Sequence record: PZ386971.1
Length of the DNA stretch: 64,000 bases
From: a phage
Strand: one strand, 5' to 3'
Shown here in pieces: positions 28,362-32,969 of this stretch; within the stretch, counting starts at the first letter, position 1, and every line of letters begins with the position of its first letter. Under the pieces are notes generated by a model. It did no database searches and was not told the DNA's origin. It saw only the letters and a list, made by a program, of their open reading frames with translations. The position numbers and the translations under genes were made by a program.

Positions 28362-28388
28362 ACCCCGCCATGTGCGGGGTTTCTTTTG
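28362..28388 (+). terminator. Rho-independent terminator
   Basis: ccccgcCATGTgcgggg then TTTCTTTT. Confidence 0.55.
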
Positions 28389-28398
28389 GACAAAGAAT

Positions 28399-28773
28399 AT
28401 GAAACCTGTTATATGCGATTACTGTGGCCTCCCAGCCGAATTCGTCGGTGGTGATGTTCTCTACCCTCATCACCCTGACCTCCGCAATCTGAAGTTCTGG
28501 GTGTGCACTCCATGTGATGCCCGTGTCGGTTGCCATGCCCATGGCGACGGCAGACAACCTTTGGGAAGGATGGCGAATGCCGCTCTCCGTGCTGCTAAGC
28601 AAAAAGCCCATAGATCGTTTGACCCATTATGGAAAAGCGGAGAGAGGAGCAGGAGCGACGCTTACAGTTGGCTGGCGCATAAGCTGGGGATTAAGAAGCG
28701 CGATTGCCATATCGGCTTGTTCGATATCGACATGTGCCGTAAAGTAGTGGAGGTCTGTAAACAAATATCATAG
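28399..28773 (+). CDS. Zinc-ribbon protein (125 aa)
   Basis: CDYC...(n)...CTPCDARVGCHAH Cys/His cluster. Confidence 0.5.
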   Translation: MKPVICDYCGLPAEFVGGDVLYPHHPDLRNLKFWVCTPCDARVGCHAHGDGRQPLGRMANAALRAAKQKAHRSFDPLWKSGERSRSDAYSWLAHKLGIKKRDCHIGLFDIDMCRKVVEVCKQIS

Positions 28774-28781
28774 GAGAACAC

Positions 28782-29654
28782 ATGACAACTCGCACTGGCA
28801 TCAAACTCACTCCTGAAGTCCTGAAGTCACATATCGCTGAGGTGATTTACGAAGACCGCGAAGTCGGCGGTCACCGGGCTATCACTTGTCATTTCAAGAT
28901 GGATAACGGCTTCGTCGTTCACGGCACCAAGCCCAGCACATCCATAGACCCGGCCAACTTCGATGAAGCCCTGGGCAAAGAGATTTCCTACAATAACACC
29001 TTCGACCAGCTGTGGCAGCTGGAGGCGTACCGGGCGCTTGTTGAACAAGATCTGTTGGCCAAAGCCACGGAAACGGCAGAGATCCGGATCGATCAATACG
29101 CTGTTGAACGTAGCGCCCTCTGTCCGGCCTATCACCTCGGCTTCAATGTGATGATTCAGGAAGTGATGTTCAGAGCGGAAAATGGCGAGCGCTTCTTGGC
29201 GTCTTTCATTTGTGGGCCGGATGACATGGAACTTGTTGTTGAATCTCACAACGCCAAATCTCGTAAGGCTGTTAGTGATTTCCTGCGCGCCAACTCCAAA
29301 CTCGATCTCACTTGTTCGCCATTGGTTCTGCGCATCGCCAAGATTTGTCATGAAGCCAACCGCGCATACTGCAAGTCTATTGGTGACGACTCTCAACTGC
29401 CTTGGGAACAATCTCCGGCCTGGCAGCGTGAGAGCGCTTGCAAAGGTGTTATCTTCCATCTCACTGGTGATCGTAAGCCCAGCGAATCGCATGAGAGATG
29501 GATGGCGGAGAAGGAGTCTGAGGGATGGGTATATGGCCCAGTCAAAGACCCTCAGACCAAGCAACACCCTTGCATAGTTCCGTATGGAGAACTCCCGGTA
29601 CAACAACGCTCCAAAGATTATATTTTCAAATCCATTGTAGACTCCTTTAAATAA
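28782..29654 (+). CDS. Gp49-like N-terminal domain fused to a C-terminal RyR-domain
   Basis: N-terminus HRAITCHFKMDNGFVVHGT...DPANFDEALGKEISYNNTFDQLWQLEAYRAL; C-terminus HERWMAEKESEGWVYGPVKDPQTKQHPCIVPYGELP resembles the RyR repeat. Confidence 0.5.
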   Translation: MTTRTGIKLTPEVLKSHIAEVIYEDREVGGHRAITCHFKMDNGFVVHGTKPSTSIDPANFDEALGKEISYNNTFDQLWQLEAYRALVEQDLLAKATETAEIRIDQYAVERSALCPAYHLGFNVMIQEVMFRAENGERFLASFICGPDDMELVVESHNAKSRKAVSDFLRANSKLDLTCSPLVLRIAKICHEANRAYCKSIGDDSQLPWEQSPAWQRESACKGVIFHLTGDRKPSESHERWMAEKESEGWVYGPVKDPQTKQHPCIVPYGELPVQQRSKDYIFKSIVDSFK

Positions 29655-29690
29655 GCTCTGAATAATATTTCAACCTGTCAATAATATAAT

Positions 29691-29719
29691 GCCCGGTTAT
29701 ATTCAATCGGGCATTTTTA
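29691..29719 (+). terminator. Terminator-like hairpin after the RyR-domain gene
   Basis: gcccg-(12 nt loop)-cgggc followed by ATTTTTA. Confidence 0.4.
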
Positions 29720-29728
29720 TTATATTAA

Positions 29729-29759
29729 TTGGCATCAATACCGCCTGTCGTAATATAAT
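29729..29759 (+). promoter_or_regulatory. Sigma70-like promoter (TTGGCA ... TATAAT) upstream of the vWA gene
   Basis: TTGGCA at 29729 and TAATATAAT at about 29751-29759 (16-19 bp spacer depending on hexamer choice). Confidence 0.4.
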
Positions 29760-29804: not shown

Positions 29805-29981
29805 ATGACCGACAACAAATTAAAACGTGTCGGACTTGATTGTCTTGACAATTCATTCCGCCCCAGTGATGTTCTGGTCGCCCAAATGGAAAACAACCGG
29901 GATTTCATTGAAACTATGCTGGAGAACGCCGACGCGAACTCCAAACACTCCAAAGCCCAAAAAGGTCAAAACGATGATTGA
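29805..29981 (+). CDS. Possible small ORF (58 aa) overlapping the vWA start
   Basis: Not in the track (under 60 aa); ATG with GAGAG upstream; reads MTDNKLKRVGLDCLDNSFRP...; hand-indexed coordinates. Confidence 0.25.
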   Translation: MTDNKLKRVGLDCLDNSFRPSDVLVAQMENNRDFIETMLENADANSKHSKAQKGQNDD

Positions 29982-32175
29982 ATCATTAACATTTAAGAAT
30001 GCGGTTGCGACCGTTGCGCCGTCTAACCATGTAATCGTTGTGGATATCTCCGGTTCCATGTATCGTTCACTTCCAGAAGTCCGTAAGCATCTGAAGGAGA
30101 ACCTGCCTTCCCTGGTGAAACCCGAAGATACTGTGAGCATCCTTTACTTTTCATCTCGCGGTGATTTCGGAACGGTATTTGCCGGACGCCAGATCGGTGT
30201 CGCATCTGACCTGAGCGAGCTGAATAAGCTGATCGATCGCTTCCTGCAACCGTCCGGATGTACTGGCTTTGTTGAGCCGTTGAAACTGGCGATGGACACT
30301 GCTCGTAGCCTGAAGAAGCCTGGCTATGTCAACAACCTGGCGTTCATGACTGACGGGTATGACAACTGCTGGCGTACCAACGAAATCTTACTGGTTGCTG
30401 AGACCCTGCCATTTGCTTTCGATAACATTACTTTCATCGAATACGGCTGGCACTGTAACCGCGAACTGCTGGCGCAGATGGCCGAACGCTCCGGTGCGAC
30501 CCACGTGTTTGCCGAAGGTCAGACCGAATACCAGACCGAACTAGAAAACGTGCTGAAGTCATCAGTGCCGAAGGTGAAAGTTGATGTCCCAGTCATCTAC
30601 ACCCATGCCATCTACGTCGAAAACGGTGTGGCAACAGTACTGGCGGTGCAGGACGATGACTCTCACCCGGTCGGCTATGTGAGCATCCCTGAGAGCGTCA
30701 CCAAGCTGTGGGTTGTAAACCCTAACATGATCGACCAGCTTGATGCGCTGGCGGACATCCAGGCGGCATACGTGCTGGCGTTCTACGGCGTACACATCAT
30801 GGACGCAGACCTGGTATGGGCTGCGCTGAAGAAGACGGGCGACGTTCGCTTCATCAAACAGTACAGCAACTGCTTTACCAAGCAGGACTACTCCAACATC
30901 AAGAACGATCTGGTACAGGCGATTGTTGACGACCAGCTGCGCGGCGTTGACGGTATTGACTATGACCTGGTTCCGGCTGAAGATGCGACGACCGTCGTTG
31001 ACGTGCTGACGTATCTGGCTGAAGCTGGCGTGTCTGTTGCCACCAAACATCCTATGTTCTCCTACAAGAGCATTGGTCGCGGTACTGTGCAGAAAGCGGA
31101 CGATACCGAAGACAAACTGGCAGAACAGATCGCGAATGCTCAGTCCAAAGAAGAGCGTAAAGCCCTGGCTCTCAAGCTGGCTGAGCACGAAGAATGGACG
31201 CCGTCGTTTGAACCTGCCAACGATCTGGGCGTTATCTCAATCAGCGATCTGGTCTACAACTCTGAGCGCCCGAACATCAGTGTGCGCACTATTCAGCATG
31301 GTACTGTGACTGTCCCTGAGTTCGCACAGAAGAAGTTTGGTCTGCCTGAAGAACTGGATACTTTCCAGTGGCGCAACTACACCATCGTCAAAGATGGTAT
31401 CATCAACGTGAAGACCCTGCCGTTCAAGGCTGATATCGAAGTTGTACAGAAGCTGATCGAAATGGGCGTCCACGTGTTTGGTGGACCGGAAGTGTTTGTC
31501 CTGAACCTGGAAAGCGTACCGCTGGTCAACCGCGCCATGGTCAAGAACATCAGTGCTGCTCAGTTCTTTGCGGATAATGTCCGTTTGGAAGCCCTGAAAG
31601 GCAAGCAGAAGGTGCTGAAGTTCTATCGAGACGCCCTGGTTGGTAAAGGTAACGCCAAAGGCCTGGCAGTACAGTACGGCGCTGAGGCGGCCGAGTTCCT
31701 GTCCTCCTACGGCATCCGCGATTACGGCTTCTCACCGAAGACTGAGACCAAAGAGTCTACCGACTTCTACATGAGCCGGGAGCTGAACGTGAAGATCGCT
31801 GGCGCTTCATCTCTACCGTCTATCGCAGCGGTACAGAAGAAGATTGCCGAGAACAAGAAACTCAATGCTGGTGACTTGTTCATCGCCAATGCTCTGAAAG
31901 AGTACGAAGCATTCGTGAAGTCTCCTATGATCACTGCCGTGCCTGAAGCCTTACAGAAACAGCTGATCGAAAACTGGATCGACGCTGCTGCCAAGGCGAC
32001 CATCACCGAAGTCCGTGCCCTGAACAAGACACTGTCTAAAGTGGTGTATGGTATCGTTGCTGGCCACGGCTGGTTCACCGACCTCGACCTGGAAGAGTCC
32101 ACCATGGAAGTTGAAGTGGATGGCGTGAAGTACAAGGTCACTGCCGAACTGACAGAGAAAGAAATCAAAATCTAA
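29974..32175 (+). CDS. von Willebrand factor A (vWA) domain protein, 733 aa
   Basis: VIVVDISGSM (MIDAS DxSxS), later FMTDGYDN; N-terminal 49 aa of the track ORF are low-complexity and likely untranslated, start ATG 29974 with AAAGG SD. Confidence 0.7.
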   Translation: MIESLTFKNAVATVAPSNHVIVVDISGSMYRSLPEVRKHLKENLPSLVKPEDTVSILYFSSRGDFGTVFAGRQIGVASDLSELNKLIDRFLQPSGCTGFVEPLKLAMDTARSLKKPGYVNNLAFMTDGYDNCWRTNEILLVAETLPFAFDNITFIEYGWHCNRELLAQMAERSGATHVFAEGQTEYQTELENVLKSSVPKVKVDVPVIYTHAIYVENGVATVLAVQDDDSHPVGYVSIPESVTKLWVVNPNMIDQLDALADIQAAYVLAFYGVHIMDADLVWAALKKTGDVRFIKQYSNCFTKQDYSNIKNDLVQAIVDDQLRGVDGIDYDLVPAEDATTVVDVLTYLAEAGVSVATKHPMFSYKSIGRGTVQKADDTEDKLAEQIANAQSKEERKALALKLAEHEEWTPSFEPANDLGVISISDLVYNSERPNISVRTIQHGTVTVPEFAQKKFGLPEELDTFQWRNYTIVKDGIINVKTLPFKADIEVVQKLIEMGVHVFGGPEVFVLNLESVPLVNRAMVKNISAAQFFADNVRLEALKGKQKVLKFYRDALVGKGNAKGLAVQYGAEAAEFLSSYGIRDYGFSPKTETKESTDFYMSRELNVKIAGASSLPSIAAVQKKIAENKKLNAGDLFIANALKEYEAFVKSPMITAVPEALQKQLIENWIDAAAKATITEVRALNKTLSKVVYGIVAGHGWFTDLDLEESTMEVEVDGVKYKVTAELTEKEIKI

Positions 32176-32181
32176 TCCAAC

Positions 32182-32205
32182 GGGCGGGGCAACCCGCCTT
32201 TCTTT
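32182..32205 (+). terminator. Rho-independent terminator with GNRA loop
   Basis: ggcgggGCAAcccgcc then TTTCTTT. Confidence 0.55.
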
Positions 32206-32217
32206 GGGAGAAGTAGC

Positions 32218-32541
32218 ATGAGCAGTAAACCAACATATGTTGAAGTCATGCGTCATCTGGCTCAGTACGCCACTGACAATCTGAACTTGGATCTGTGGCG
32301 TGACGATGACAAGCGCAAATTGCTGGACGACGTGGCATCTCAGAACGAGGACGCCCTAGACAAGCTGGCTGGCCTCCGCACCAAGAAAGACCTCGGCGGT
32401 GATGAACTGGACGCTATCGAAATTGTAATGGACCTCGAAGAAGAGTTTCAGGTCGAAATCGACGATGGTTGGCTGGGCAGTAAAGGTGATGACCCGACCA
32501 TGGGTGAACTCGCTGAACTCGTGGTTGCCCTGCGCAAATAA
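32218..32541 (+). CDS. Acyl carrier protein homolog with Ser-to-Glu at the phosphopantetheine site
   Basis: DLGGDELDAIEIVMDLEEEFQVEIDD aligns with E. coli ACP [26 protein letters not shown]; the conserved DSL Ser is Glu (DEL). Confidence 0.7.
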   Translation: MSSKPTYVEVMRHLAQYATDNLNLDLWRDDDKRKLLDDVASQNEDALDKLAGLRTKKDLGGDELDAIEIVMDLEEEFQVEIDDGWLGSKGDDPTMGELAELVVALRK

Positions 32542-32547
32542 CAGAAG

Positions 32548-32572
32548 TCCCCAACAAACGTTGGGGATTTTT
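32548..32572 (+). terminator. Terminator hairpin tccccaacAAAgttgggga + T-run (copy 1)
   Basis: Identical 26-bp element recurs at 32904. Confidence 0.55.
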
Positions 32573-32583
32573 ACTTTTAGGGG

Positions 32584-32612
32584 TTTACTTCTATAATGTA
32601 AATGCGTATTAT
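32584..32612 (+). promoter_or_regulatory. Early promoter (-35 TTTACT, 17 bp, -10 TATTAT)
   Basis: gggGTTTACTtctataatgtaaatgcgTATTAT; same -35 family as cassette A. Confidence 0.45.
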
Positions 32613-32886: not shown

Positions 32887-32903
32887 GCATAACTTTTATT
32901 AAA

Positions 32904-32928
32904 TCCCCAACAAACGTTGGGGATTTTT
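32904..32928 (+). terminator. Terminator hairpin tccccaacAAAgttgggga + T-run (copy 2)
   Basis: Exact repeat of the element at 32548. Confidence 0.55.
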
Positions 32929-32940
32929 AACTTTTAGGGG

Positions 32941-32969
32941 TTTACTTCCTTTAAGGAATGTCCTATTAT
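32941..32969 (+). promoter_or_regulatory. Early promoter (-35 TTTACT, 17 bp, -10 TATTAT)
   Basis: GTTTACTtcctttaaggaatgtccTATTAT. Confidence 0.45.

Follow-up and report, generated by a model that had tools for sequence, protein, structure and literature searches.

What would a phage do with an acyl carrier protein (ACP) that has no serine on which to carry anything? The question is raised by a small gene in a 64,000-nt stretch of phage record PZ386971.1 (the window; coordinates are counted from its first letter). The gene, an open reading frame (ORF) of 107 aa at 32218-32541, had been described in a first-pass annotation as a phage-encoded ACP homolog in which the phosphopantetheine-acceptor Ser is replaced by Glu. 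Sequence and ORF list confirm the reading frame, and its phage origin is evident from the surrounding 2 kb, 97.9% identical to Escherichia phage vB_EcoM-ZQ1 (Ackermannviridae) and matched by 221 phage records. The window derives from a ViI-like myovirus of this family; two annotated relatives belong to Kuttervirus and Agtrevirus. As judged from its sequence, the protein is a pantetheine-free ACP fold that cannot be a carrier.

The ACP-like protein (MSSKPTYVEVMRHLAQYATDNLNLDLWRDDDKRKLLDDVASQNEDALDKLAGLRTKKDLGGDELDAIEIVMDLEEEFQVEIDDGWLGSKGDDPTMGELAELVVALRK; excerpt KKDLGGDELDAIEIVMDLEEEFQVEIDDG) is strongly acidic, with an isoelectric point (pI) of 4.2, 27 Asp and Glu among its 107 residues, and no Cys. 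In a BLASTP comparison, residues 57-83 align with residues 31-57 of E. coli AcpP with 17 of 27 positions identical (63%, pairwise E 5e-9), which bears out the AcpP-like helix II noticed earlier and places Glu63 opposite Ser36. AcpP residues D35, D38, E41, E47, E48, E49, I54 and D56 all have counterparts in the phage protein. The codons gat gaa ctg gac around the Glu63 site were located exactly at 32401-32412, where the first-pass annotation had put them.

A phmmer search of all PDB chain sequences yielded 99 ACP matches (best E 1.6e-5), in a single register with DSLD opposite DELD. The Pfam PP-binding profile (PF00550) is matched at 24.8 bits, above its gathering cut-off of 20.8, over profile positions 26-66 only, and PP-binding_2 stays below its cut-off (27.4 against 32 bits). 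Both NCBIfam ACP models tried fail as well, TIGR00517, the ACP equivalog, with 33.7 bits against 70.45 and NF002149 with 32.9 bits against 106, each matching residues 54-83 only. An AlphaFold model built from 25 family sequences (mean predicted local distance difference test, pLDDT, 78; predicted template-modelling score, pTM, 0.70) contains helices at residues 7-21, 30-40, 44-51, 55-59, 66-77, 83-88 and 95-106. Its best Foldseek matches are ACPs, with target-normalised template-modelling scores of 0.66-0.70, and the predicted structure has the four-helix carrier-protein fold. The relationship to ACPs, which had been laid open beforehand to refutation by profile or structure comparison, thus held in Pfam, phmmer and Foldseek. 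At the sequence level, the resemblance is judged to exceed chance.

The loss of the acceptor serine is fixed. All 38 close homologues (57-99% identity) carry Glu at this position, or Asp in two of them, so that a sequencing error, the other possible refutation foreseen at the outset, does not account for the missing Ser codon. A profile search covering 1.84 billion representative sequences added remote full-length relatives (P0040-P0047, 33-49% identity), which read DEL or DDL. Weighted over an alignment of 47 members, the site has Glu at a frequency of 0.71 and Asp at 0.29, never Ser, and the replacement is never hydrophobic; D62, L64, I67, E68, E74 and P93 are invariant. The change from Ser to Glu or Asp was seen in every family member found, down to about 30% identity. 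It extends to MAM_092 of Serratia phage phiMAM1 (L023 5573-5845), a 90-aa 'acyl carrier protein' reading FDELD, and to an ORF of Erwinia phage vB_EamM-Bue1 (MG973030.1; L022 5253-5612) reading MDELD. The Bue1 ORF lies directly 3' of the neighbouring gene for a von Willebrand factor A (vWA) protein and is preceded by the GC hairpin of other family loci. It has no gene call in the collection gene table, and the apparent 440-bp gap there is a missed gene.

No other residue takes over the role of the serine. The site and its immediate neighbours (GGDELD) offer no Ser, Thr or Cys; Cys is missing from the whole protein, and no further Ser is conserved. T94 was considered as an alternative attachment site and rejected, as it aligns with the ordinary Thr that caps the N-terminus of helix IV in AcpP. 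Among the 199 annotated features of the 152-kb genome of the 91%-identical relative PQ306799, no phosphopantetheinyl transferase (PPTase), fatty-acid, polyketide or nonribosomal-peptide synthase, or acyltransferase was found by annotation, with many products listed as hypothetical. The D-S-L motif with the attachment Ser of functional ACPs is absent, and the protein is therefore not a functional member of that family. Since the replacement is conserved and Cys is lacking, acyl carriage by the canonical route is impossible; the earlier claim that the protein cannot be acylated holds for that route.

Helix II itself is the best conserved part of the family. Mean column entropy falls to its minimum there (0.93 bits at residues 63-77), against 2.41 bits in the linker at residues 22-53. 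This pattern indicates purifying selection on the ACP recognition helix and on a carboxylate at the prosthetic-group site. As in a mimic, the recognition surface of a host factor, its acidic helix II, is retained while the residue that carries its activity is lost. Two parts are specific to the family. The extended N-terminal region of the first-pass annotation proves to be some 27-30 residues in excess of the canonical four-helix bundle, with a predicted extra helix at residues 7-21, and between helices III and IV the W85-x-G87...DDPT loop forms a 3-residue insertion relative to AcpP. This loop also occurs in the short phage forms P0051 and P0055 and is missing from phiMAM1, whose MAM_092 is a short form of the family without the N-terminal helix and without the W-x-G...DDP loop. 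The structural and chemical part of the first-pass interpretation is thus solid.

The gene is present in databases under a name that does not fit it. It occurs in 272 phage records, in every Ackermannviridae genome examined, and corresponds to PHROG 4154 over its full length (E 6.8e-57). The name 'acyl carrier protein' is used for PHROG 4154 and in many RefSeq/GenBank records, among them Vi01, PhiSH19, Ag3, 0507-KN2-1 and Sajous1 gp186, and genome tables repeat it without comment (PMC3220722; PMC10892097). These Ackermannviridae records belong to the same gene family, their names having been transferred from the PP-binding domain. In the literature searched for serine-less phage ACPs, ACP mimics and Ackermannviridae expression timing, only annotation tables turned up, with no mention of the missing Ser or of a function. 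Going by its residues, the database name is a mis-transfer. The gene family and its name were already known; new are its recognition as a conserved non-carrier and the hypotheses that follow from it. One record with a doubtful label was met: 'Enterococcus phage Efm 3-10' (OR844942.1, 111 kb) carries an Ackermannviridae vWA gene (83% identity) and an ACP-like gene (59%), which casts doubt on its host label.

As to the partner of this protein, a host ACP client comes first among the readings, and we hold it tentatively. By protein-protein docking alone, the ACP-like protein would fill the basic ACP-binding patch of the client, and it would deliver no acyl-pantetheine arm. The carboxylate of Glu or Asp would stand in for the singly charged phosphoserine ester. 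The phosphodiester on Ser36 of holo-ACP has one negative charge, like a carboxylate, and the carboxylate carbon of Glu lies about as far from C-beta as does the phosphorus of a serine phosphoester. Owing to this matching distance and single charge, the acidic residue could mimic the base of the prosthetic arm. The client would then be competitively blocked or modulated during infection. We infer all three steps: the mimicry of the phosphate, the docking on a client of the host and the inhibition that would result. A decoy that inhibits host lipid synthesis or other ACP clients, as first suggested for this gene, is a plausible hypothesis.

Clients that tolerate apo-ACP would be among the candidates: the acyltransferase PlsB, MukB and, by our own reasoning, the holo-ACP synthase AcpS, whose substrate is apo-ACP. 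Over-produced ACP stops growth of E. coli through inhibition of glycerol-3-phosphate acyltransferase, the apo form acting more strongly than the holo form (PMC3896788, citing Keating et al. 1995). Apo-AcpP binds MukB and raises its ATPase activity just as well as holo-AcpP does (PMC8602292). For ACP-Isd11 complexes, PMC8547962 describes an Arg in contact with the negatively charged phosphate oxygens of phosphopantetheine, a contact that a carboxylate could mimic. The conserved helix II, as a putative docking surface, also speaks for a host client, as does the setting of the gene, which lies among short units equipped with terminators and sigma-70-like promoters and close to a fragment of an Alt-like ADP-ribosyltransferase.

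Several observations weigh against a host client. Cellular AcpP is present at about 100 uM, so a stoichiometric decoy would need very high expression or a much higher affinity. No sigma-70-like promoter serves the ACP-like gene alone; it lies behind a conserved terminator-like hairpin, which may attenuate its expression. Some clients need the holo form, SpoT failing to bind apo-ACP and IscS the S36T variant of AcpP. Many AcpP clients make use of the helix III region, and there the phage protein has diverged (DGWLG against DEEAE in AcpP). The N-terminal helix, W85, G87 and DDP are conserved in the long forms and hint at a dedicated interface. In the phmmer search of the PDB, B. subtilis and organellar ACPs score slightly above E. 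coli AcpP, so nothing points to mimicry of the host in particular beyond helix II, which is universal. Glu or Asp might have been chosen simply as a helix N-cap or as the best structural replacement, and the strict conservation of synteny with vWA across Ackermannviridae speaks for a partner within the phage. As for the origin of the gene, recent capture of a host acpP was ruled out, given the slightly better scores of B. subtilis and organellar ACPs and the age of a family whose members reach down to about 30% identity.

A more specific version of the host-client reading would make the protein a 'holo-ACP mimic', present in Ackermannviridae and at least two other phage lineages. Its carboxylate would imitate the phosphodiester of the arm and jam an essential host client (e.g., AcpS, PlsB, a lipid A acyltransferase or MukB) in the service of host takeover or anti-defence. 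We regard this version as possible, though doubtful.

The main rival is a phage-internal partnership, because a vWA gene always precedes the ACP-like gene, with a conserved hairpin and no promoter-like site in the interval. The protein would be a subunit or adaptor of a phage complex, most plausibly together with the adjacent vWA product. The metal ion-dependent adhesion site (MIDAS) of the vWA product would take its final ligand from the invariant carboxylate that tips helix II. In integrin I-domains, ligand Glu or Asp residues complete the metal site in this manner. We rate such a pairing as unlikely, if well worth considering.

The vWA neighbour described in the first-pass annotation lies immediately upstream and is recognized by Pfam VWA with 29.2 bits against a cut-off of 23.8. 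Its MIDAS residues (D24-x-S26-x-S28, T97 and D127) are conserved in 52 homologues; the protein has both the vWA fold and the metal site. The AlphaFold model (pLDDT 86.6) matches 4fx5 in Foldseek with E 3e-10, along with vWA proteins of the ArnB and Sec23-24 type. These matches cover the vWA domain with or without an adjacent beta-sandwich; for the C-terminal ~500 residues, although they are modelled with confidence, no convincing Foldseek match was found. Homology to PHROG 2426 and to all homologues begins at ATG 29974, whereas the longest ORF opens at GTG 29827 and overlaps, in its 5' part, the conserved 58-aa ORF in another frame. Some records name the vWA product 'tail protein' or 'minor tail protein', a label for which we saw no evidence.

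Gene order argues for the pairing. The succession of small ORF, vWA and ACP-like gene is kept in all Ackermannviridae-type loci examined, including those where the ACP-like protein is only 33-49% identical, and the records carrying a vWA gene at 60% identity or more (about 270) nearly equal those with an ACP-like gene (272). The compensatory changes in the intergenic hairpin, the conservation of the MIDAS and the family-specific conserved residues outside helix II point the same way. ACP folds act as structural subunits in many solved complexes and in Plasmodium (PMC8547962). Both proteins were also detected by mass spectrometry of Sajous1, in one retrieval each (PMC10892097).

Against it stands the wider distribution of the vWA gene. 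The vWA/MIDAS family (~730 aa) occurs in 504 phage records, distantly also in Bacillus and Rhizobium phages, and about 230 of these records, from T4-like and other phages, hold homologues with 45-50% identity and the same MIDAS. Near those homologues, no ACP-like gene was found within 4 kb, and tblastn gave no match in their genomes. The listed carriers outside Ackermannviridae are mostly ~175-kb phages of Klebsiella, Enterobacter and Cronobacter (e.g., KP15), with further homologues in Yersinia phage JC221 (in a locus with T4-type baseplate genes), Shewanella phage Thanatos-1 and a 452-kb metagenomic contig. The genes 3' of vWA in T4-like and jumbo phages were considered as ACP-like candidates and rejected, for lack of a match to Pfam or to the family hidden Markov model. 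Conversely, the shorter Ser-less relatives P0051 and P0055, which share the G-x3-DDPT loop, are found in phage-like contigs without a vWA gene. In phiMAM1, the ACP-like gene lies 0.9 kb downstream of vWA, with three small ORFs in between. These distributions suggest that the ACP-like gene has autonomy from the vWA gene, and the terminator-like hairpin between the two also counts against the pairing. A fusion of the two proteins by read-through was considered, as both share a frame in the window (32218 - 29827 = 2391 = 3 x 797), and rejected, as the frame is not kept in L004 (6001 - 3717 = 2284) or L007 (6001 - 3744 = 2257).

Less probable again is the reading as a generic acidic helical protein, derived by drift from an ACP ancestor and now active in some other way (e.g., imitating nucleic acids or polyanions, or acting as a chaperone), with Glu or Asp kept only as the best helix N-cap. 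The composition of the protein would suit this explanation, and phage acidic mimics are a known class (T7 gp5.9 against MukBEF, PMC7617805). Glu and Asp are also the commonest replacements in unrelated Ser-less ACP-like domains, including exported bacterial ones, a count that is biased because the query profile has Glu at the site. Conservation, however, peaks on the ACP recognition helix and not across the acidic surface, and the modelled fold is a compact four-helix bundle, unlike an elongated DNA mimic. Finally, a genuine carrier with unconventional loading, whether at a different residue or by a different prosthetic group, would agree with the ACP fold and the database name, and is highly improbable given the absence of Ser, Thr or Cys at or beside the site, of any Cys and of another conserved Ser, the N-cap role of T94, the lack of an annotated PPTase or acyl-transfer enzyme in PQ306799 and the failed ACP equivalog cut-offs.

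The features of the locus are collected in Table 1.

Table 1. Features of the ACP-like gene and its transcription unit in the window.
Feature	Position	Strand	Basis
Three sigma-70-like promoter matches and a terminator-like hairpin, 5' of the small ORF-vWA-ACP-like unit	29638..29756	+	Promoter/terminator scan
Small ORF, 58 aa; precedes/overlaps the vWA start	29805..29981	+	ORF list
vWA protein, 733 aa; N-terminal vWA domain with intact MIDAS	29974..32175	+	Pfam VWA, PHROG 2426
GC-rich hairpin (32182-32199) and T-rich tail, from the vWA stop to the ribosome-binding site of the ACP-like gene	32182..32209	+	Terminator-like match
ACP-like coding sequence, 107 aa, ATG start	32218..32541	+	ORF list, sequence
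N-terminal extra helix, residues 7-21, family-specific	32236..32280	+	Absent in canonical ACPs and short phage forms
Residues 58-83 (DLGGDELDAIEIVMDLEEEFQVEIDD): end of loop I, helix II ('recognition helix'), start of helix III	32389..32466	+	BLASTP, column entropy
Glu63 codon GAA, site of the AcpP phosphopantetheine-acceptor Ser36	32404..32406	+	Alignments
Loop W85-x-G87...D91-D92-P93-T94, helix III to helix IV, family-specific	32470..32499	+	Conserved columns
Terminator-like hairpin tccccaacaaacgttgggga (32548-32567) followed by tttttactttt; closes the transcription unit	32548..32578	+	Sequence

The organization of the locus indicates how the gene may be transcribed. The only plus-strand promoter-like sites upstream of the ACP-like gene are those preceding the small ORF, none being found between 29756 and 32570. 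Counterparts of the small ORF (54-70 aa) are syntenic in the relatives' loci L001, L002, L004, L005 and L007. The terminators noted earlier on both sides were recovered as terminator-like hairpins, the downstream one followed by a T-run. The upstream hairpin (minimum free energy -19.1 kcal/mol) is kept in eight loci with compensatory stem changes, its stems being GGCGGGG/CCCGCC, GGCCGGGG/CCCGGCC, GGGGGC/GCCCCC and GCCGGGG/CCCGGC. It may be a partial terminator or an element of RNA stability or translation. The ACP-like gene would thus be the last of the small ORF-vWA-ACP-like unit, probably transcribed by read-through of this partial terminator or stabiliser. The downstream hairpin is also conserved in relatives, with a repeat_region annotation in NC_049507, and on its 3' side a TTTACT-N16-TATAAT element is found at 32570-32597.

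Some neighbouring features were also observed. The cassette of terminator and promoter (tccccaacaaacgttgggga, T-run, TTTACT-N16/17-TATAAT/TATTAT) follows two consecutive small genes, at 32548-32597 and 32901-32969, the second copy of the hairpin part lying at 32901-32926, and it is conserved in relatives. The 175-aa ORF at 33299-33826 matches PHROG 832, 'RNA polymerase ADP-ribosylase' (Alt-like), at the C-terminal end only (1265-1425 of 1480), and some relatives annotate its counterpart as RNA polymerase ADP-ribosylase. Upstream, a DUF3268 zinc-finger protein (28372-28773, E 7e-38) is followed by a single protein combining an N4 gp49 / Sf6 gp66 domain with a RyR domain (28782-29654). In Kuttervirus relatives, an NAD-salvage pair (phosphoribosyl pyrophosphate synthetase-like and nicotinamide phosphoribosyltransferase) is inserted between the DUF3268/RyR block and vWA; it is absent from the window.

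Acidic replacements of the acceptor serine also occur elsewhere. The family profile matched 219 domains, and the residue at the site is Glu in 58 of them, Asp in 17 and Ser in 135, a count biased towards Glu since the query profile itself carries Glu there. The many metagenomic ACP-like domains with D[ED]LD in place of DSLD include P0095, P0163, P0125, P0183, P0118, P0072, P0074 and P0079 (loci L014 and L015). Several have N-termini resembling signal peptides or lipoboxes (...LTSVGC, ...LLVGC, ...SLTGC) or tandem domains (223-425 aa), and, from these motifs, they appear to be exported ACP folds that cannot be pantetheinylated. Vibrio phage 277E43-1 encodes a 177-aa protein (P0098, L018 2980-3513) with DNLD, a C-terminal extension and no vWA neighbour. 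Two phage loci (L016 5001-5297 and L006 936-1223) encode proteins of 95-98 aa with DELD and a DDP(T/Q) loop, again without a vWA neighbour, and the ACP-like protein of siphovirus ctuI7215 keeps DSF. The acpP match of 'Acinetobacter phage MD-2021a' was rejected as a phage ACP: it has a normal DSL in a bacterial fabD-fabG-acpP operon, and the records (CAKLQH020000007.1, CAKLQF020000011.1) look bacterial because of their yceD-rpmF-fabD-fabG-acpP region.

These results correct an annotation that has propagated through PHROG 4154, many records of Ackermannviridae and at least two genome papers, all naming an impossible function. They also provide a concrete hypothesis, that of a docking protein of ACP shape whose prosthetic-group site holds a fixed acidic residue, for a gene of a phage family widely studied in biocontrol and therapy. 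The gene presents a conserved, family-wide oddity that is easily testable in an applied phage family, and a credible phage-internal alternative stands beside the host-client reading. If a host ACP client is the target, the protein would reveal which node of the ACP hub the phage attacks and offer a natural inhibitor scaffold for essential ACP-dependent enzymes. If it were indeed a holo-ACP mimic, it would represent a hitherto undescribed class of phage effectors and give a natural lead towards inhibitors of ACP-dependent pathways. If the vWA/MIDAS pairing is true, it would be a parallel, in a bacterial virus, to the pantetheine-free mitochondrial ACP subunits of apicomplexans. The frequency of ACP-like domains with Glu or Asp for Ser, including exported bacterial ones, suggests that the ACP fold serves in non-carrier roles more often than is appreciated.

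Compared with known systems, the protein resembles apo-AcpP of E. coli in its four-helix fold, its small size and acidity, its 63% identical helix II and the absence of an arm. In contrast to AcpP, its Glu in place of Ser36 rules out any conversion to the holo form. It differs further in the added N-terminal helix, the W-x-G...DDP insertion and the diverged helix III region, and its gene resides in a lytic phage with no fab context. T7 Ocr and T7 gp5.9 (which inhibits RecBCD and MukBEF; PMC7617805) share the logic of a small, very acidic early-type phage protein imitating an abundant host ligand. Those proteins imitate DNA and their inhibition is demonstrated, whereas the ACP-like protein would imitate a protein cofactor carrier and is only presumed to inhibit.

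Structural use of the ACP fold is also known from ACP-like subunits of large complexes, namely mt-SAF32, NDUFAB1/SDAP, Tetrahymena ATPTT11, an ACP-like subunit of complex IV and mL50. In the mitochondrial ACP (mACP) of Plasmodium falciparum, the acceptor Ser is replaced by a Phe on which the binding of Isd11 depends (Falekun et al. 2021, eLife; PMC8547962). The Toxoplasma mACP has Cys or Gly instead, and the same study found no Ser-less ACPs outside Apicomplexa and Vitrella (PMC8547962). The phage protein shares with these phosphopantetheine-free mACPs an ACP fold in which the acceptor Ser is replaced and the replacement conserved. It differs in that the replacement is always acidic, where theirs is hydrophobic, and in that it belongs to a phage and not to an organelle; no LYR-type partner turned up for it, none having been searched for systematically. 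In its working, the protein would be most like either an inhibitory apo-AcpP or the pantetheine-free mACP of Plasmodium.

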